From positions 1 to 50,255 of the forward strand of contig JAZDKA010000049.1 in assembly GCA_043803385.1 (NCBI GenBank): a stretch of 50,255 nt of DNA. Reading direction: 5' to 3'. Positions within the stretch are counted from its first letter, which is position 1. Every line of letters starts with the position of its first letter. The translations under genes were made by a program, and so were the position numbers. Under the pieces are notes generated by a model, which saw nothing but the letters and a program-made list of their open reading frames with translations, was not told the DNA's origin and did no database searches. The stretch is from Patescibacteria group bacterium (GTDB taxonomy: Bacteria; Patescibacteriota; Minisyncoccia; Moranbacterales; JAKLHP01). Shown here piece by piece: positions 21,228 to 50,255 of this stretch.

Positions 21228-23678
21228 ATGAAAGAAGAGAAAAAAGAAAATAACAAAAATATCCATTCTCGCCAGATAACCGATGAAGTCCAGCAGTCAT
21301 ACTTGGATTACGCCATGAGCGTAATTGTTTCTCGCGCCCTTCCGGATGTTCGCGATGGAATGAAGCCGGTCCACCGAAGAATTTTGTATTCCATGTGGAA
21401 CACCGGACTTCGAGCTAGCGCCAAATTCAGAAAATCCGCCACTGTTGTCGGAGAAGTGCTGGGAAAATACCATCCGCACGGAGACAGCGCCGTCTACGAA
21501 TCAATGGTCCGAATGGCACAGGATTTTTCTTTGAGATATCCGCTTGTCTGGGGCCAGGGAAATTTCGGATCAATGGACGGCGACAGCGCCGCGGCTTATC
21601 GTTATACTGAAGCCAAGCTCAAGCAAATCGCTGAAGAAATGCTTTTTGACATCGAAAAGGAAACGGTTGATTTTGTGCCTAATTTCGATGGAACTCATCA
21701 AGAACCGGTAGTTCTTCCCGCCAAACTCCCTCAACTTCTTCTTAACGGAACTATGGGAATTGCGGTGGGAATGGCAACTAACATTCCTCCACATAATCTA
21801 AACGAGCTCGTTGACGCTATCGCCTATTTGATTGATAATCCCGAAGCTACCATTGACGACCTGCTGAATTTCGTTAAAGGCCCTGATTTTCCGACTGGAG
21901 GAATAATCTATAACGCCAGAGATATTAAGGAAGCTTATTCTCTTGGAAAAGGAAAAATTACTACTCGCGGAAAAGCTGATATCGTTGAAACTAAAAGCGG
22001 AAGTTTTCAAATTGTTATTTCTGAAATAACTTATGCTACCAACAAGGCTGCTATGATTACGAAAATTGCTGATTTAGTTAAAGAAGGAAAACTTCAGGGA
22101 ATCAAAGACCTTCGCGATGAATCGGACAAGGATGGAGTGCGGGTCGTGATTGAACTTAAAAAAGACGCTTATCCGCAAAAAATTCTTAACAGCCTTTATT
22201 CCAATACTGATCTTCAAAAAAATTTCAATGTAAACATGCTGGCGCTGGTTGATGGGATTGAACCAAGGATCCTAAATCTCAAATCAATGCTCGAATATTT
22301 TATCGTTCACAGGCAGAAAGTAATAACCAGGCGCACCGAATATGAACTTAAAAAATCCAAAGAAAGAGCTCATGTTCTTGAAGGGCTCAAAAAAGCTCTC
22401 GACCATATTGATGCCGTGATTGAAACCATCAAAAAATCAGCTACAAAAGAAGTCGCCCATGATAATTTGATGAAGAAATTCAAGCTCTCTGACATCCAGG
22501 CTACCGCCATTTTGGAAATGAGATTGCAAACTTTGGCTGGGCTCGAAAGAAAGAAACTAGAAGATGAGCTCAAAGAAAAATTAGCTCTTATTGCTGAACT
22601 TGAAAATATTCTCAAGAGCCCAAAGAAAATTTTGGGAGTAGTAAAAAAAGAAATTCTGGAAATCAAAGAAAAATACGGAGACGAAAGAAAAACCAGAGTA
22701 ATCAAAACCGGCATCGGAGAATTTAAACAGGAAGACTTAATTCCCAACGAAGAAGCAATCATTACCCTCACCCAGGACGGATATATAAAAAGAATGGATC
22801 CTAATTCATACAAGGTTCAAAAAAGAGGTGGAAGAGGAGTGATTGGCGCTACTACCAAAGAAGGAGATTCAATTGAACAAGTGACCAGTGTGATGACTCA
22901 CGATAATCTGATGTTTTTCACTAACACCGGAAAAATTTTTCAGACCAAATCTTATGAAATTCCGGTTTCTCAAAGAACCGCCAAAGGACAAGCGATTGTT
23001 AATTTTCTCCAGCTTTCACAGGATGAAAAAATAACCGAAATGATTGCCTTCAACAAAGAAGACAATTATAAATTTTTCTTTATGACCACCGAGAATGGAA
23101 CGGTAAAGAAAGTAAAAATAGAAGATTTTGAAAACGTTAGAAGATCCGGGCTTATTGCTATAAATCTAGACAAGGGAGATACGCTTGGCTGGGTGAAACC
23201 GACTACTGGAACTGATGAAATTATTGTCACTACTTCACGGGGACAAGCCATTCATTTCAAGGAAACAGATGTACGCGCTATGGGAAGGAATGCCGCCGGA
23301 GTTCGAGGAATCAAACTCAAAAAAGATGACCGAGTTGTCGGGACAGATTCAGTTCTTAAAAACCAAAAAGGAAACCAGCTTCTCATTATTTCTGAAAATG
23401 GATTTGGAAAAAGAACGGATCTTAAATTCTACAAGATCCAAAAGCGCGGAGGAAGCGGAATAAAAACTTCCAGTGTTACTGCCAGAACTGGAAAACTGGT
23501 CGCCGCTAAAATGGTTAATATTGATGATATCGAAGTAGATATGCTCATTACTTCAGAACAAGGACAGATTATTAGAATTCCGCTCAAAAGCGTTTCAGTT
23601 CTGGGCCGAGCTACTCAAGGAGTTCGAATTATGAAACCAACTTCCGGAGACAAAGCTTCTGCTATGGCAGTACTCTAG
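21228..23678 (+). CDS. gyrA: DNA gyrase subunit A
   Basis: [24 protein letters not shown], catalytic Tyr context [10 protein letters not shown], and a C-terminal beta-pinwheel repeat region. Confidence 0.95.
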
Positions 23679-26291: not shown

Positions 26292-27845
26292 TTAGGCTTT
26301 ATCCTGTGGATAAGCATTAGTTTTATTACTTATCCACACTTTGCTCCCAATAATAAGCCCTAGAATAAGCCAAAATATTATTTGTCCTTGCTGAATATCC
26401 CAAAAATAATGATCAAAAAGCATTATAAATAAAAAACCGAAAAACAAGCTTTTTAATGTCAAATGAAGTTTATCTTCTGGGAATTTCCTGTACGGAAAAT
26501 TTTTCGCTACTTCCCAAATAAACCAAACAAATAATATAAGTCCAATTATTCCTAATTCGTTTAAAATAAGCAGAAACACGTTATGAACTGGCTGAAACTG
26601 CCAATTCTGAATTCCGGAAACATTAGCTAATTGATAAACATATTGTCCTATTCCGACTCCTATGACCGGATTTTCCAAAAATGTTCCACGTGAAACATTT
26701 AGATAAAACATCCTATCCTCAATGCTTTTCCCTATTATCGAGTACCAATTTGGCCTTATTATAAAAATTAGCAGAAAAATTATACTCACTATCAAGCCAA
26801 AGTACTTAAGTTTTCTAGCCACGAACTTCAAAAATGTTCCGCGCCTGCCCCGTAGAATGTTCCACGTGGAACATTTGTACTGGGGTGGAACATTTTTATA
26901 CCACAAATACAAAACTGCGATAATTAACCCAATCCAGGCAGATTTAGAGAAAGTTAAAACTAGGGTTAAAAGCTGAATTCCTAAAACTGAATAATACATA
27001 CTATTGTTCCACGCTTGCCCCGTCAATTGTTCCACGCTTGCCCCGTCAATTGTTCCACGTGGAACAATTTGACTGGGATGGAACACCTTAAAATACAAAA
27101 CTGTTAAGATTATAGATAAAACTAAAAATCCGCCGAGAATATTAGGATGCGGAAATAAGCCGTAAGATCTAATATATTTCTCTCCATTAAGCACTATTTT
27201 GGCTACTCCTGAAATATCCGATGAAATTATGCTTTCTTTAAGCCAAATAAGGCCAATTGACTTTTGAACAATAAATTGCCAAATTCCAATGAAGGATTGA
27301 GCTATCCCGATAGATATAATTATTAGAAATAAATTCTTTTTTATTGTGTTCCACCCCAGTAGCAAAGAAAATGTTCCACGTGGAACATTTTCTTGCAACG
27401 GGGCAGGCGTGGAACAATTGGTTGCTATGAGACAAGCGTGGAACAATCTAAAGATAACCCAGAGATAAAGTAAATAAAATTCCAGTAATTTTATAGATCT
27501 AAAAATAGCTACTTGCCAGTTATCTGACCAAAAGGCGCTAATAAAGGAAAAAATGACTAACAGCAGGGGAATTATAACAACTTTTTGCTTTAAATAAGCT
27601 ACAAAGTAAGGATTACTCCTTGACTTTGATAGTATTTTATTGTATAATATAGATAACCCAGTGATTATTAGCACAAACAAAAGAAAAATATCAGATAAAT
27701 ATATATAAATTCCGGTATATTCATTAAACTGTTCCCTTATTGGGTAAAAAAACAAAACTTTCCTGATTGAAAGCGTAAAAGTCAAAAGAAAACCGTAAAA
27801 AAACCAGATTTCTAATTTATTTAAAAAATTTATTATCCTTTCCAT
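26292..27845 (-). CDS. O-antigen ligase (Wzy_C)-like polytopic membrane protein carrying in-frame palindromic inserts
   Basis: About 12 hydrophobic spans. GLFPHPNILGG, GVGIGQYVY and QPVHNVFLLILNELGIIG resemble the O-antigen ligase domain. Four VPRGT/CSTWN-type peptide islands come from parS palindromes. Confidence 0.65.
   Translation of the reverse strand: MERIINFLNKLEIWFFYGFLLTFTLSIRKVLFFYPIREQFNEYTGIYIYLSDIFLLFVLIITGLSILYNKILSKSRSNPYFVAYLKQKVVIIPLLLVIFSFISAFWSDNWQVAIFRSIKLLEFYLLYLWVIFRLFHACLIATNCSTPAPLQENVPRGTFSLLLGWNTIKKNLFLIIISIGIAQSFIGIWQFIVQKSIGLIWLKESIISSDISGVAKIVLNGEKYIRSYGLFPHPNILGGFLVLSIILTVLYFKVFHPSQIVPRGTIDGASVEQLTGQAWNNSMYYSVLGIQLLTLVLTFSKSAWIGLIIAVLYLWYKNVPPQYKCSTWNILRGRRGTFLKFVARKLKYFGLIVSIIFLLIFIIRPNWYSIIGKSIEDRMFYLNVSRGTFLENPVIGVGIGQYVYQLANVSGIQNWQFQPVHNVFLLILNELGIIGLILFVWFIWEVAKNFPYRKFPEDKLHLTLKSLFFGFLFIMLFDHYFWDIQQGQIIFWLILGLIIGSKVWISNKTNAYPQDKA
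26305..26338. promoter_or_regulatory. Two perfect DnaA boxes in inverted orientation
   Basis: TGTGGATAA at 26305-26313 and TTATCCACA at 26330-26338. Confidence 0.6.
26682..26697. promoter_or_regulatory. parS: parS site S1
   Basis: TGTTCCACGTGAAACA is identical to the Bacillus-type parS consensus TGTTNCACGTGAAACA. Confidence 0.75.
26858..26873. promoter_or_regulatory. parS: parS site S2
   Basis: TGTTCCACGTGGAACA, a perfect 16-bp palindrome one step from the parS consensus. Confidence 0.7.
27051..27066. promoter_or_regulatory. parS: parS site S3
   Basis: TGTTCCACGTGGAACA. Confidence 0.7.
27372..27387. promoter_or_regulatory. parS: parS site S4
   Basis: TGTTCCACGTGGAACA. Confidence 0.7.
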
Positions 27846-28035
27846 CTTTTAATTATACATCATTCTTTCACCCCCACACCAGAAGATTATAAATGCAAAG
27901 CGAATTAAGTTCAACTAACTTAGTCGATCTCTCGGTGTGGGGGTTTATTCTTAAACATTACTTATAAATTGTTTCTGTGATATAATCTTGATATTGCGTT
28001 TGTTCTTTGCAAAATAAAAAAATAGGGGTGAAAAA

Positions 28036-29203: not shown

Positions 29204-30772
29204 TTAGTTATGTAGTTTTAAAATAATTTGGGCCGTTAGCTCATTTGGTAGAGCGCATCCATGGCATGGATGAGGCGACCGGTTCGATCCCGGTACGGTC
29301 CACCAGACAGGAAATTGCAAGCAAGAGGTGGTCGCCTCGCTTCGCTCGGCGACCAAATCGTAAGGAATTTTGGGCGAAAAAATCAGTTGGCGATTCTGTA
29401 AAATGCAGTTCGAGCCGATATTTTTAAGAAATGTTGTCATTTCTGATTTGTTTTCCGTTTCAAGTAGTTTTGCGGCTTGATTAAGCGATAAAACGAACTC
29501 ACGTGCCGGTTCGAGCCACGACAGACCTTTCTGTTCAAAATCTCGGATTTTTTCCTGCAGACCGACCTTTTCCTTAACCAACCTTTCTTTGCGAGAGGCA
29601 TATTCCTCGGCAGTAATTATTTCTTCCAAATAAACATCAAGTAGTTTTTCGAGTTTTTTCTCAATTTCCAAAAATGTCGTCTTGAGGTTTTGAACAGTAA
29701 TTTTGGTTTGCTCTTTTGCTTGCGTTTCCTCCTTGTTTAACTCGGCCAAAACTTTTTCTGTGTCGTGGTTCGGCAAAGAAATTTTTTGAAGAAAGGTTTT
29801 GATTTGTTGATATAATTCTTCTTCCCGCAAAAAGTGTTTTTCTTGGCATGGTCCTTTCTTTTTCGTACAGCGATAGTAAATATATTCTCTGCCGCTCGGC
29901 TTGATTTTCTTTTCAGCGGTTATTGCCGCTGAGCAAGGGCATTTCATTAAACCAAGAAAAGCAAAATTATGTTTTTTCACTTTTTGCGGCTTGCCTTTTT
30001 CTCGCATAATTTCCTGCACCTTATCAAAAAGTTTCTTTGAAATTAACGGCTCGTGAGTGGCTTCGTGGATTTCGCCTTTGTACTTCATGAGACCAATGTA
30101 GAAAACATTTTGCAAAAGCGTATGGACTTTTCCAATTGAAATTTCATTGCCCAAATTGCTTTTGAGATCTATTCGTTTGCACCGCTCGGCTATTTCTCGA
30201 AGGTTGTAATTTCCGGTGGCATAAAGCTCAAAAATTTTTTTCAACTTCGGTGCTTTCTCGGTATCAACATCAATTCCTCTGGTTTTTGGATTGTTGAGGT
30301 AGCCGAGTGGTGCCTTGCTGGGCCAAACGCCGTTTCTAACTTTCTGCCTCATGCCGCGAGTGACATTTTCTCTTAAACTATCCACATAATATTTTGATTG
30401 GCCAAAAGCAATTTGGAGCATGAAAAGTCCTTGAGGTGTCGGTTCAAACCAAAATGTTGGAAACTTTAATGATTTAATCAAGCCGCGATCAATCATGTGA
30501 ATTATTTTTCCGCCGTCCACAGAATTGCGCGCCAATCTATCCGGATTCCAACTCAAAATTCCTTCTGCTTTTCCATTTTCTATCAATGACAACATTTCTG
30601 CGAATTTAATTCGCCCAGGTTCTTTGGCGGTTTTTGCCTCTTGAAAAGAGGCGACAATTTCAAGTTTTTCTTTGGCGGCAAATTCTTTTAATTCAAAAAT
30701 CTGGGCCTCAATACTCAAGACCTGTCGGTCATCTTCTTCGGTAGATTTTCTTGCATAAAGTATATATTTCAT
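29204..30772 (-). CDS. Large serine recombinase (resolvase domain + recombinase domain + zinc ribbon + coiled coil); true 3' end uncertain
   Basis: N-terminal YARKSTEEDDRQVLSIEAQ (catalytic Ser context), PDRLARN, and zinc-ribbon-like CPCS...YYRCTKKKGPC. The ORF runs on antisense through the att arm and the whole tRNA-Ala gene. Confidence 0.85.
   Translation of the reverse strand: MKYILYARKSTEEDDRQVLSIEAQIFELKEFAAKEKLEIVASFQEAKTAKEPGRIKFAEMLSLIENGKAEGILSWNPDRLARNSVDGGKIIHMIDRGLIKSLKFPTFWFEPTPQGLFMLQIAFGQSKYYVDSLRENVTRGMRQKVRNGVWPSKAPLGYLNNPKTRGIDVDTEKAPKLKKIFELYATGNYNLREIAERCKRIDLKSNLGNEISIGKVHTLLQNVFYIGLMKYKGEIHEATHEPLISKKLFDKVQEIMREKGKPQKVKKHNFAFLGLMKCPCSAAITAEKKIKPSGREYIYYRCTKKKGPCQEKHFLREEELYQQIKTFLQKISLPNHDTEKVLAELNKEETQAKEQTKITVQNLKTTFLEIEKKLEKLLDVYLEEIITAEEYASRKERLVKEKVGLQEKIRDFEQKGLSWLEPAREFVLSLNQAAKLLETENKSEMTTFLKNIGSNCILQNRQLIFSPKIPYDLVAERSEATTSCLQFPVWWTVPGSNRSPHPCHGCALPNELTAQIILKLHN
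29230..29305 (+). tRNA. tRNA-Ala(GGC), CCA encoded
   Basis: GGGCCGT...CATCC-ATGGCAT-GGATG...GGTTCGATCCCGG...ACGGTCC-ACCA, with the G3:U70 alanine identity pair. Confidence 0.9.
29306..29396 (+). repeat. IR1 copy a (att arm 1; encodes the recombinase C-terminal tail on the minus strand)
   Basis: Inverted match to 30820-30910. Perfect blocks: ACAGGAAATTGCAAG, GCTCGGCGACCAAAT and TTTGGGCGAAAAAATCA. Confidence 0.75.
29399..29426 (+). repeat. IR2 copy a
   Basis: 28 of 28 nt are the reverse complement of 31023-31050. Confidence 0.85.
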
Positions 30773-34753: not shown

Positions 34754-35368
34754 ATGGCTTCGCAAGTTGCGCACATTATTTATGCCAAAAAATATTTTGA
34801 AAAGAGCGACTTTCTCTCTGAAGAGAAAGATGAATTTATTTTGGGCTGCACATTTCCCGATATCAGAAGAATTGACGGGAATATTAAAAGAAAGGATACG
34901 CATCTCCGGTTTTATCCGCTGGATCTTAACCTTGAAAACCTTACGCCATTTGAAGCTGGATGGAAATTTCATCTCTATTGCGATATGCGAAGGGAGGAAA
35001 TCTTGAATAGCTATGATTTTTATTCATTGAAATATACGAATGAATTTTGGAATCATCCAGCAAAGATGTTTGAAGACGAACTTCTATATGAAAAATATGA
35101 CAATTGGGAAAAATTAGCGAATTATTTCAATGACGTGCCGATTATTTCCAATGGCATAAATGTTCCACAAGGAACTTTTGAACTTTGGTACTCAATTTTA
35201 GCCAGTTATATAAAGCAAAAGCTAAACAACAATTCGATAAGCACCTTTCTTTCCAAACAACCCGGTATTGCGCCAATCGCCAACGATATAATTAAGATAG
35301 TGGACAAACTTCGCAAAAATGATAAAGTTATTGAGATACTTGGAAAAGTTTCAGAAGAAATAATATAG
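34754..35368 (+). CDS. Hypothetical protein
   Basis: ATG at 34754. The tracked ORF start at 34613 reads through the tRNA remnant and a low-complexity repeat. Confidence 0.5.
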   Translation: MASQVAHIIYAKKYFEKSDFLSEEKDEFILGCTFPDIRRIDGNIKRKDTHLRFYPLDLNLENLTPFEAGWKFHLYCDMRREEILNSYDFYSLKYTNEFWNHPAKMFEDELLYEKYDNWEKLANYFNDVPIISNGINVPQGTFELWYSILASYIKQKLNNNSISTFLSKQPGIAPIANDIIKIVDKLRKNDKVIEILGKVSEEII

Positions 35369-41151: not shown

Positions 41152-41799
41152 TCAAAATAAAGTTTTTTGCTTGTCTTCAGCAACATTATTTTTGTTTTCT
41201 TCAATAATTTCATTTCCGGCTTTTTCCACCGCTTCCAGAACTTTAGGAATTTTTTTAAAATCTTGGATTAAGACTTCCCGCATTGAACCGTTATAAAGCG
41301 CGGCGGCAGGATGGTAGAGCGCATAAAAAACCCTTGCACCGAGTCCAGGAATATTTCTTCGCATGGCTTTTCCGTGAATCTGGGATATTTTTTGATTGAG
41401 TAAAAATCTTTCCATTGAATGCCTGCCGAGCATCACTATTAATTTTGGGTCTATTATTTCTATCTGTTTTTCCAGCCATGGCCAGCAAGCTTCAGCTTCC
41501 TCCGGGAGTGGATCCCTGTTGCCAGGAGGGCGGCATTTTACTATGTTGGCAATATAGACTTCTTCTCTTTTCAAATTAATCGAGGCGAGCATTTCATCCA
41601 GAAACTTTCCGGCCGCACCGACAAAAGGGCGGCCTAATTCATCTTCTCTCTGTCCAGGACCTTCGCCGATGAACATAATTTCCGCTTCAGTGCTTCCTTC
41701 TCCGGGAACAACCCTTTTACAAGTTCCACGTAGAACACAAAGAGAACATTCTAACATTTTTTTATTTAGTTTTTCTAATTGTTCTTTTTTTGGAGACAT
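41152..41799 (-). CDS. udg: Uracil-DNA glycosylase, family 4
   Basis: CSLCVL...VVPGEGS...MFIGEGPG..EDELGRPFVGAAGKFL...NIVKCRPPGNR. Confidence 0.9.
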   Translation of the reverse strand: MSPKKEQLEKLNKKMLECSLCVLRGTCKRVVPGEGSTEAEIMFIGEGPGQREDELGRPFVGAAGKFLDEMLASINLKREEVYIANIVKCRPPGNRDPLPEEAEACWPWLEKQIEIIDPKLIVMLGRHSMERFLLNQKISQIHGKAMRRNIPGLGARVFYALYHPAAALYNGSMREVLIQDFKKIPKVLEAVEKAGNEIIEENKNNVAEDKQKTLF

Positions 41800-47900: not shown

Positions 47901-48407
47901 TTAATCTTTATTTAATTTGTTCTGTAATGCGATGTTTATTGCTTTTTTTTCTTCTTCGGTAAGAGGGTACTTTACCGCTTCTCCTTTATTAACGGGTTTT
48001 GCATATACCCTTGTTCCTTCTTTGGTGTGGAGAGATGAGATAACCACTCCTGAATTTTTGCCATCGAGAAAAGCAACTGAAAAACTTTGATCTCCTCCGA
48101 TATCATTAAATGGGTTAAACCTAATTATTCCAAACTTATGTATGCTTTTTAGAGTTAACTTGTGTATTTTATTAGAAATATTATATATTTCCTGAATTTC
48201 ATTGTCTAGCAGCTTTAGATTGGCTATATTTTTTACTACCAGTTCTTCTAAGTCTTTCCCATTTTTTCCTTCAAAAAATACCTTGCTTTTTTTATTTACC
48301 CTTGAAATTTTAATCAGGCAAATGCTTAACAAGAATATAGCAATAACGACTATCCCCGCAATAATTCCAAAAAATAAGCTTATATTTTGAGCAATAAAGT
48401 TGTTCAT
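47901..48407 (-). CDS. DUF4446-like membrane-anchored protein
   Basis: N-terminal TM span, then IIRFNPFNDIGGDQSFSVAFLD..NSGVVISSLH, as I recall for DUF4446. Confidence 0.55.
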   Translation of the reverse strand: MNNFIAQNISLFFGIIAGIVVIAIFLLSICLIKISRVNKKSKVFFEGKNGKDLEELVVKNIANLKLLDNEIQEIYNISNKIHKLTLKSIHKFGIIRFNPFNDIGGDQSFSVAFLDGKNSGVVISSLHTKEGTRVYAKPVNKGEAVKYPLTEEEKKAINIALQNKLNKD

Positions 48408-50019: not shown

Positions 50020-50255
50020 GGGATAAACTGTTGATATTGTATTGTTTTTTAAATTTTAGCCGTTGATAAATATTTTTAAATGTTGTTAATAACTAGTGGG
50101 TAATAATGAGGTTTTATTTTAATTTATCTTAAAAACAGATTATTTAATTTATTTCCCCTACCTTATCCACATCATAAATTATAATTTTTTACTTCATATA
50201 AAGTAAAAAATTATAATTTATGGGTTATATATAATAATAGTAATAAAATATTAAA
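50020..50255. other. oriC: Candidate oriC segment downstream of dnaA
   Basis: Perfect DnaA box TTATCCACA at 50163-50171. Degenerate boxes at about 50029-50037 and 50061-50069. 22-bp perfect inverted repeat at 50173-50194 / 50201-50222, followed by an extremely AT-rich tail. Confidence 0.55.

Follow-up and report, generated by a model that had tools for sequence, protein, structure and literature searches.

A probable chromosomal parS array embedded in a conserved protein-coding gene, for a Wzy_C membrane protein, of Moranbacteria

Our analysis concerns a stretch of 50,255 nucleotides (contig JAZDKA010000049.1 of assembly GCA_043803385.1, Moranbacterales), called here the window, in which one protein-coding gene carries an array of parS sites, the 16-bp palindromes that load the partition protein ParB in other bacteria. 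The gene encodes a polytopic membrane protein of 517 amino acids (aa) on the minus strand. PF04932 (Wzy_C) matched its open reading frame (ORF) with an E value of 1.3e-11 and 44.9 bits, above the gathering cut-off of 31.7, and this match, together with about 12 helices or hydrophobic spans, assigns the predicted protein to the Wzy_C family, in agreement with its earlier description as O-antigen-ligase-like in a reading made from the letters of the window (hereafter, the sequence-only reading). We found 869 homologues of the ORF, the best named ones being from Moranbacteria, and in an alignment of 28 homologues the host protein keeps the invariant residues. The named homologues, both of the host ORF and of the DnaA protein encoded in the window, are from Candidatus Moranbacteria, Parcubacteria or Patescibacteria.

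A search with the palindromic consensus TGTTNCACGTGNAACA found four exact matches in the window, all of them in the host gene (Table 1). One of them, TGTTCCACGTGAAACA, is identical to the parS consensus and the other three are copies of TGTTCCACGTGGAACA, at the positions that the sequence-only reading had given. When up to two mismatches were allowed there were six sites where 0.09 were expected, and none of 100 shuffled sequences reached six; two degenerate parS-like 16-mers with two mismatches each lie in other genes, TATTCCATGTGGAACA at 21387-21402 in gyrA and AGTTCCACGTAGAACA at 41722-41737 in the UDG gene. The half-site GTGGAACA occurs 15 times, against 0.63 expected, and 13 of these occurrences fall inside 26682-27445; a solitary half-site was seen at 35161. 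Nine half-sites beyond those of the four full sites are contained in three imperfect nested palindromes within the host ORF, which we refer to as composites A, B and C. Folded as single-stranded DNA, these segments reached -19.5 kcal/mol (A, z -5.3), -19.3 kcal/mol (B, z -5.1) and -25.3 kcal/mol (C, z -5.6), and none of 200 shuffles folded as well as the three composite segments. The 26682 site, a simple parS, lacks outer arms, and its folding z is -1.2. The larger palindromes with half-site arms and the tandem duplication of a 23-mer in composite B, both of which had been read from the letters, are thus present. The 517-aa ORF stays open through all of these segments, and the peptides VPRGTF, CSTWNI, DGASVEQ and TGQAWNN that had been assigned to them were all found in the translation. 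The statement that all sites are in frame holds for the ORF, which remains open, but not for the sites themselves, which lie in two frames relative to the gene, since the reading is V(P/S)RGT at three of them and CSTWN at the fourth.

Table 1. Coordinates of the parS array, its host gene and other features of the window.
Feature	Position	Strand	Description
parS site 1 TGTTCCACGTGAAACA	26682-26697		extended palindrome 26678-26700; read NVSRGT, aa 383-388, conserved region
Composite palindrome A	26830-26897		full parS TGTTCCACGTGGAACA 26858-26873, read CSTWNI; loop aa 319-338, low-confidence inter-helix
Composite A arms			degenerate left half TGTTCCGC 26835-26842, then GCCTGCCCCG; right half GTGGAACA 26885-26892, CTGGG before it
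Composite palindrome B	27003-27085		full parS TGTTCCACGTGGAACA 27051-27066, read VPRGT; loop aa 256-277
Composite B arms	27003-27025, 27026-27048		two tandem copies of the 23-mer ATTGTTCCACGCTTGCCCCGTCA, each with a TGTTCCAC half-site (27005, 27028) and GCTTGCCCCG
Composite B right half	27078-27085		degenerate, ATGGAACA
Composite palindrome C	27346-27447		full parS TGTTCCACGTGGAACA 27372-27387, read VPRGT; loop aa 134-169
Composite C core	27365-27394		perfect 30-bp palindrome enclosing the full parS
Composite C arms			left half TGTTCCAC 27347-27354; two right-arm units with GTGGAACA 27409-27416 and 27438-27445
Host gene	26292-27845	-	Wzy_C / O-antigen-ligase-like polytopic membrane protein, 517 aa; open ORF carrying all four exact parS sites
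Inverted pair of perfect DnaA boxes	26305-26313, 26330-26338		TGTGGATAA and TTATCCACA; last codons of the host ORF, read KVWIS and AYPQDK
gyrA	21228-23678		housekeeping gene
dnaA	48637-50019	+	Pfam Bac_DnaA, E 7e-69; 21.2 kb from the last composite

To compare the array among relatives we used the orthologous gene with 10 kb on either side from 80 species-representative genomes. At least one exact parS was present in the orthologous gene at all 80 species-level loci, and the 72 complete genes carry a median of 7 and a maximum of 17 exact sites. With up to one mismatch we counted 625 parS sites in 142 kb of gene and 3 in 1,151 kb of flanking sequence, an enrichment of about 1,700-fold over the 80 loci; the uniform distribution that the sequence-only reading had named as evidence against a centromere was not seen. 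The exact sites in 81 orthologous genes number 584, of which 512 are TGTTCCACGTGGAACA, with the extended conserved word aAA[AT]-TGTTCCACGTGGAACA-[TA]TTt, and the ORF is intact in 78 of the 81 genes. A few orthologues (four proteins) lack exact parS peptides and have near-variants: IVPCGT, corresponding to TGTTCCATGTGGAACA, MFHVEY, CSMWN and CSLWN. Decay of the sites may account for such variants, or else they may mark a lineage with shifted ParB specificity.

The way in which these sites are read points to selection at the level of DNA. In the alignment of 28 homologues the peptides NVPRGTF, KCSTWNI and KMFHVEH/Q recur at variable positions, and they are the three frames of AATGTTCCACGTGGAACATT; within the long ORFs the 585 exact sites are distributed over the three frames as 141, 184 and 260. 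VPRGT is encoded by exactly GTTCCACGTGGAACA in 210 of 212 cases and CSTWN by TGTTCCACGTGGAAC in 138 of 141, while CGT makes up only 11% of the Arg codons elsewhere in the same genes. Parallel counts in proteins gave a median of 5 parS-derived peptides in 120 homologues of the host protein and none in 120 DnaA controls, and the peptide pattern was still present down to an E value of 1e-52 among representatives at 50% identity. The use of three frames and the fixation of synonymous codons therefore argue for selection on the DNA word and not on the peptide, and by this evidence parS is under DNA-level selection across the whole order. That VPRGT and the other repeated peptides are selected as functional protein motifs in loops could be suggested by NVSRGT, which is close to the invariant R378 and within a conserved region, but one and the same DNA yields three unrelated peptides, its synonymous codons are fixed, and distant homologues carry a different motif at the NVSRGT position. 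We give this explanation next to no credence, as the frame and codon tests effectively refute it.

We mapped 552 sites onto the window protein and obtained six hot spots, at aa 77-89, 134-169, 252-280, 319-346, 380-386 and 449-457. Five of the six fall where an AlphaFold model has low-confidence segments between helices, and these places are also gaps between the hydrophobic spans. Orthologues vary in both length and content at the loops that hold composites A-C, as an alignment of ligase orthologues had been expected to reveal. Across the orthologues the number of parS sites tracks the length of the ORF (r = 0.64), so the arrays lengthen the loops. With the approximately 12 helices alternating, the five insert loops all share one side of the membrane, and the conserved loops (YGLFPHPN, R378...H421, DHYFWDIQQG) are on the other. 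On the insert side there are about 27 Lys and Arg residues against about 15 on the other, and because of this excess the five variable loops are predicted, under the positive-inside rule, to be cytoplasmic. A Foldseek search of the model, which has a predicted local distance difference test (pLDDT) score of 59.7, against the PDB returned nothing below E = 1, and only the secondary structure of the model was used.

The sixth hot spot is the position of the 26682 site, inside a conserved region reading YLNVSRGTF. An exact parS stands at this position in 36 of 72 aligned orthologues, and more distant homologues have a hydrophobic motif in place of NVSRGT, for example YQSIAFNLI. From this alignment we conclude that the 26682 site arose by substitution and not by insertion. 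The proposal that the sites are tolerated in loops of a membrane protein is therefore borne out for the three composites, which lie in variable inter-helix loops, and does not apply to the 26682 site.

The composite architecture recurs in other species. Isolated half-sites number 275 in the 81 genes, and the density of the half-site 8-mer, counting two for each full site, is 10.4 per kb of gene against 0.09 per kb of flanks. Isolated half-sites and full sites have the outer flank AAA[AT] in common, and about 80 isolated half-sites, in many species, are followed by GC[CT]TGCCC. Their orientation is non-random: before a full site (F) we counted 14 left halves (lF) and 1 right half (rF), and after it 17 right halves (Fr) and 2 left halves (Fl). 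Patterns such as lFr, lFrr and llFrr occur about 20 times across the clade, which bears out the description of the composites as a full site with flanking half-sites. The commonest form in the clade is the single full site (343 of approximately 580 clusters); full sites in tandem, spaced by 37-41 bp, and tandem arm units recur as well. At seven loci the orthologous gene contains split parS sites, at several positions, in which TGTTCCAC is followed by a GC-rich hairpin of 20-36 nt (e.g., TTGCCTGCCGGCAGGCAAGT), placed exactly between CAC and GTG, and then by GTGGAACA. By their arrangement, the composites of the window are typical members of this recurring pattern.

How the composites came about can be approached from their distribution. 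The sequence-only reading proposed that a palindromic element had spread here, by analogy with the Rickettsia palindromic elements (RPEs), and this part of it did not hold: units made of a half-site and a GC box were found 58 times in the orthologous genes and not once in 1.19 Mb of flanks, and there are no composite units elsewhere in the 50-kb window. These counts therefore indicate local growth of the array within one gene and not dispersal, and they argue against a dispersed mobile element. A mobile element with a parS-like core, similar to an RPE or a miniature inverted-repeat transposable element, that inserts in frame into genes would account for the strong hairpin potential of the palindromes, for in-frame insertions that lengthen the protein in step with the number of sites, and for split sites whose exactly central GC-rich hairpins resemble targeted insertions. 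Such an element is nonetheless highly improbable, given the restriction of the units to the orthologous gene, their absence from every other gene of the window, a host gene that is the same in all 80 species, and the lack of an associated transposase.

A closer contest concerns the arms. It may be that centromere function belongs to the full 16-bp sites and that the arms are functionless by-products of palindrome-driven slippage or template switching, tolerated in the loops, and to this we assign a little less than an even chance. The predominance of single full sites among the clusters of the clade agrees with it, and so do the arms that are degenerate or have indels, as is often the case and is seen in composites A and B, and the differences in arm-unit sequence among species. 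Against it stand the number of isolated half-sites and their enrichment in the gene over the flanks, the outer flank that they share with full sites, their non-random orientation, and the GC[CT]TGCCC that follows them in many species. The regularities of flank, orientation and GC box are, however, not decisive, because they would also fit recurrent birth of half-sites from full sites.

Taken as a whole, the array is probably the chromosomal centromere of a Moranbacteria-type genome, that is, a parS array located within the coding sequence of the conserved Wzy_C gene. The exact palindromes, their conservation among related species and their concentration in the gene relative to its flanks give this strong comparative support, as does their proximity to the origin. 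The distance between dnaA and the host gene is 21.2 kb in the window, matching the approximately 21 kb read before. In a 231,922-bp ENA contig it is 23.6 kb, and in CAYTRS010000003.1 and JBAXDL010000001.1 it is 17.6 and 35.0 kb, respectively, so that the sites lie 17.6-35.0 kb from dnaA in four genomes. Sequence matches in metagenomes served as a positive control: the parS 20-mer stands beside parA-parB operons in 27 of 120 random metagenome loci of varied GC content, among the matches listed, and is therefore an ordinary parS there; the loci with the 20-mer among the matches listed were of other phyla only, with no Moranbacteria. Chromosomal parB was reported in 81 of 84 near-complete species of Moranbacterales (96%) in a survey based on GTDB (PMC12704722, Dataset S1).

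Several points weigh against the centromere. We looked for parB and parA in all ORFs of the window, of the 80 orthologous loci and of 7 dnaA loci, with a regular expression for the GERRxRA arginine patch and with phmmer queries of B. subtilis Spo0J and Soj. No ParB or ParA domains were found in the 50-kb window, no parB or parA within 10 kb of the host gene in the 80 relatives, and none within 10 kb of dnaA in the 7 relatives. As the same phmmer query recovers ParB in other phyla (the 27 of 120 metagenome loci, among the matches listed), parB appears to lie neither near the array nor near dnaA. To our knowledge, ParB binding has been demonstrated for no member of the Patescibacteria. The scans for parS covered about 20-50 kb per genome, and other parS clusters may exist elsewhere. 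The cytoplasmic placement of the loops leans on helix alternation and on counts of Lys and Arg residues, with a model of low confidence (pLDDT 59.7). In our analysis the order Moranbacterales was assigned to the window by the names that its homologues carry.

The absence of parAB near the array and near dnaA would also suit a protein other than ParB, whether a gene regulator or an orphan ParB-like or Noc-like protein, which binds the sites for regulation or for nucleoid organisation. The perfect DnaA boxes in the same gene, described below, would fit such a general platform for DNA-binding proteins, and orphan ParB proteins are widespread (PMC12704722). We consider this explanation improbable: the 16-mer is exactly the canonical parS and with its flanks gives the 20-mer that accompanies parAB operons in many phyla, chromosomal parB is reported in nearly all Moranbacterales species of the survey cited above, and up to 17 sites per gene would be excessive for an operator.

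If the array is the centromere, ParB dimers would load at each full 16-bp palindrome and spread from it as clamps dependent on cytidine triphosphate (CTP), building a partition complex near the origin. Binding and spreading at the embedded sites is a well-founded expectation, because it follows established ParB biology. The sites would occupy short variable loops of the protein, presumably cytoplasmic, and one substituted position in the conserved region. The gene could tolerate them because the TGTTCCACGTGGAACA palindrome is free of stop codons in every frame and the peptides read from it are small, polar or positively charged. The array would grow and turn over locally as arm units are duplicated in tandem and palindromes become nested, each change being a multiple of three bases, and the flanking half-sites would be either weak auxiliary contacts for ParB or remnants of this growth. 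Two further ideas are speculative. Membrane tethering of the centromere is conceivable because the product of the host gene is a polytopic membrane protein, whose coupled transcription, translation and membrane insertion might hold the centromere at the membrane; and the split parS sites and nested palindromes might be extruded as cruciforms upon supercoiling, thereby reconstituting or masking ParB sites.

The host gene is also enriched in perfect DnaA boxes. We counted 40 in the 81 orthologous genes, or 0.29 per kb compared with 0.04 per kb in the flanks, and loop hot spot 1 (nt 200-290) accounts for about 30 of the 40, which occur in both orientations and several frames (read LWIT, VDN, LST, IH[KR] and YPQ). 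The position of the window's pair at the 3′ end of the gene is common to only 3 of the 81 orthologues. A dedicated, order-wide landing pad for cis-elements of the origin region, receiving parS arrays as well as DnaA boxes and extended by the membrane tether and the cruciforms, is a doubtful reading of the host gene, to which we give only a small chance. Another perfect DnaA box lies at 50163, in the 236 bp before the end of the contig, and the dnaA-dnaN spacers of relatives contain 2-5 boxes; these box clusters likely mark oriC. An oriC at the host gene itself, considered on account of the DnaA boxes and a local minimum of GC skew, was not adopted, since in relatives it is the dnaA-dnaN spacer that holds the clusters of boxes and the skew in the window simply tracks gene orientation. 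No parS was found within 10 kb on either side of dnaA in 7 relatives, nor in the paralogous Wzy_C genes near dnaA of relatives.

The remainder of the window is AT-rich and holds 15 tRNA genes and the housekeeping genes ftsH, tilS, S1, infB and that of the CCA-adding enzyme. Gene order is conserved among relatives (CCA enzyme, NMO, host gene, NYN, S15, gyrA). An 18-nt inverted repeat, ACCCCCACACCAGAAGAT / ATCTCTCGGTGTGGGGGT, lies at 27870-27944, in the 190 bp that separate the host gene from the divergent NMO gene; it had no Rfam match. Between 29204 and 32357, where the GC content is 0.40-0.45 against about 0.33 nearby, there is a large serine recombinase ORF (Resolvase, Recombinase and Zn-ribbon) whose 3′ end overlaps tRNA-Ala (29230-29305) on the opposite strand, followed by a 108-aa ORF and a subtilase S8 gene. 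This region is probably a small element integrated at the tRNA gene; relatives, as seen at one locus, have a single small gene between NMO and the CCA enzyme. A DUF4446 gene (47901-48407) adjoins dnaA divergently in the window and at three other loci. In a second lineage of Moranbacteria, represented by four loci, dnaA is instead bordered on its left by rpmH-rnpA-yidC-jag; next to these genes comes a polysaccharide cluster that includes two Wzy_C paralogues, both without parS. An intergenic counterpart of the gene-embedded array, likewise beside gyrA, was seen in an unrelated AT-rich bacterium (locus L162; GyrA 40% identical, GC 0.28), where the intergenic spacer of 466 bp that immediately follows gyrA downstream holds four identical parS 20-mers, at 1448-1760. 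Many public records of metagenome-assembled genomes (MAGs) that contain the Moranbacteria-type host gene, at seven of our loci and others, are titled 'uncultured Bdellovibrionales', 'Ignavibacteriaceae' or 'Methanosarcinales', and these labels look wrong.

We searched the literature, subscription-only papers being outside our reach, for the peptide strings and for mentions of parS in candidate phyla radiation (CPR) bacteria, in Patescibacteria or Moranbacteria and in genes of O-antigen ligases, and no relevant work came up. Within the same reach no earlier description of the composite architecture was found, in keeping with the sequence-only reading, which knew of none. If correct, the array is an unusually clear case of dual coding, in which an array of protein-binding DNA is kept by selection inside a functional ORF, in three frames, throughout an order, and it illustrates how compact CPR genomes place cis-elements where intergenic DNA is scarce. 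It would offer a landmark, readable from sequence alone, for the centromere and hence the origin region in uncultivated Moranbacteria, of use for orienting MAG contigs and for estimating replication rates, and its full, half, split and nested sites would form a natural series for studying the rules of ParB loading. It also carries a warning for annotation: length variation and odd repeated peptides in the host family would be footprints of DNA-level selection and not protein motifs.

Some elements of this picture are already known, namely parS inside genes, multi-site clusters near the origin and binding of half-sites by ParB of Pseudomonas. In B. subtilis the coding sequence of spo0J holds a parS, read NVPRET, which likewise shows parS tolerated inside an ORF and in the frame of the VPRGT sites described here; spo0J has a single site in one frame, whereas the Moranbacteria genes have multi-copy arrays in three frames, with insertions that lengthen loops. 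Clusters of many parS sites are found in Myxococcus (about 24 sites), Corynebacterium (10), Caulobacter (about 7) and Streptomyces, spread over about 10-200 kb and over many genes and spacers. Like the present array they place many sites near the origin, presumably raising ParB loading, but we know of no account in which these clusters are limited to a single gene or form nested palindromes. The ParB of Pseudomonas aeruginosa was reported by Kawalek et al. (2018) to bind half-parS heptamers, and isolated half-sites of the sequence GTTCCAC are common to both systems; in Pseudomonas they are scattered over the genome and bound by ParB, whereas here they are known from sequence, in one gene, where they flank and face full sites.

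Two other kinds of element resemble the array in form. RPEs are also palindromic DNA in frame within coding genes, at permissive positions of the protein, but they are scattered through many unrelated genes, and no DNA-binding function is known for them, whereas the units described here are limited to one orthologous gene (58 against 0) and have a known protein-binding site as their core. Plasmid centromeres such as sopC of F, with 12 repeats of 43 bp, and parC of R1 are likewise tight tandem arrays of binding sites for a partition protein; they are non-coding, have other sequences and other families of partition proteins, and consist of regular direct repeats rather than nested palindromes. 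A close parallel is with the chromosomal ParABS centromeres, for which the 16-bp parS consensus is reportedly TGTTNCACGTGAAACA (Lin & Grossman 1998; Livny et al. 2007). The core sequence, the clustering near the origin and the palindromic site for a binding dimer are shared with them, and parB is reported in 96% of the species of the order. What differs is that a single protein-coding gene holds the whole array, with four sites in the window and as many as 17 in relatives, within 0.8-1.9 kb, that this conserved host gene is the same across the order, and that the surrounding 20 kb are without sites. New, in our assessment, is such an entire array within a single conserved protein-coding gene across an order, with up to 17 sites in about 1.9 kb, in three frames and in nested or split palindromes.

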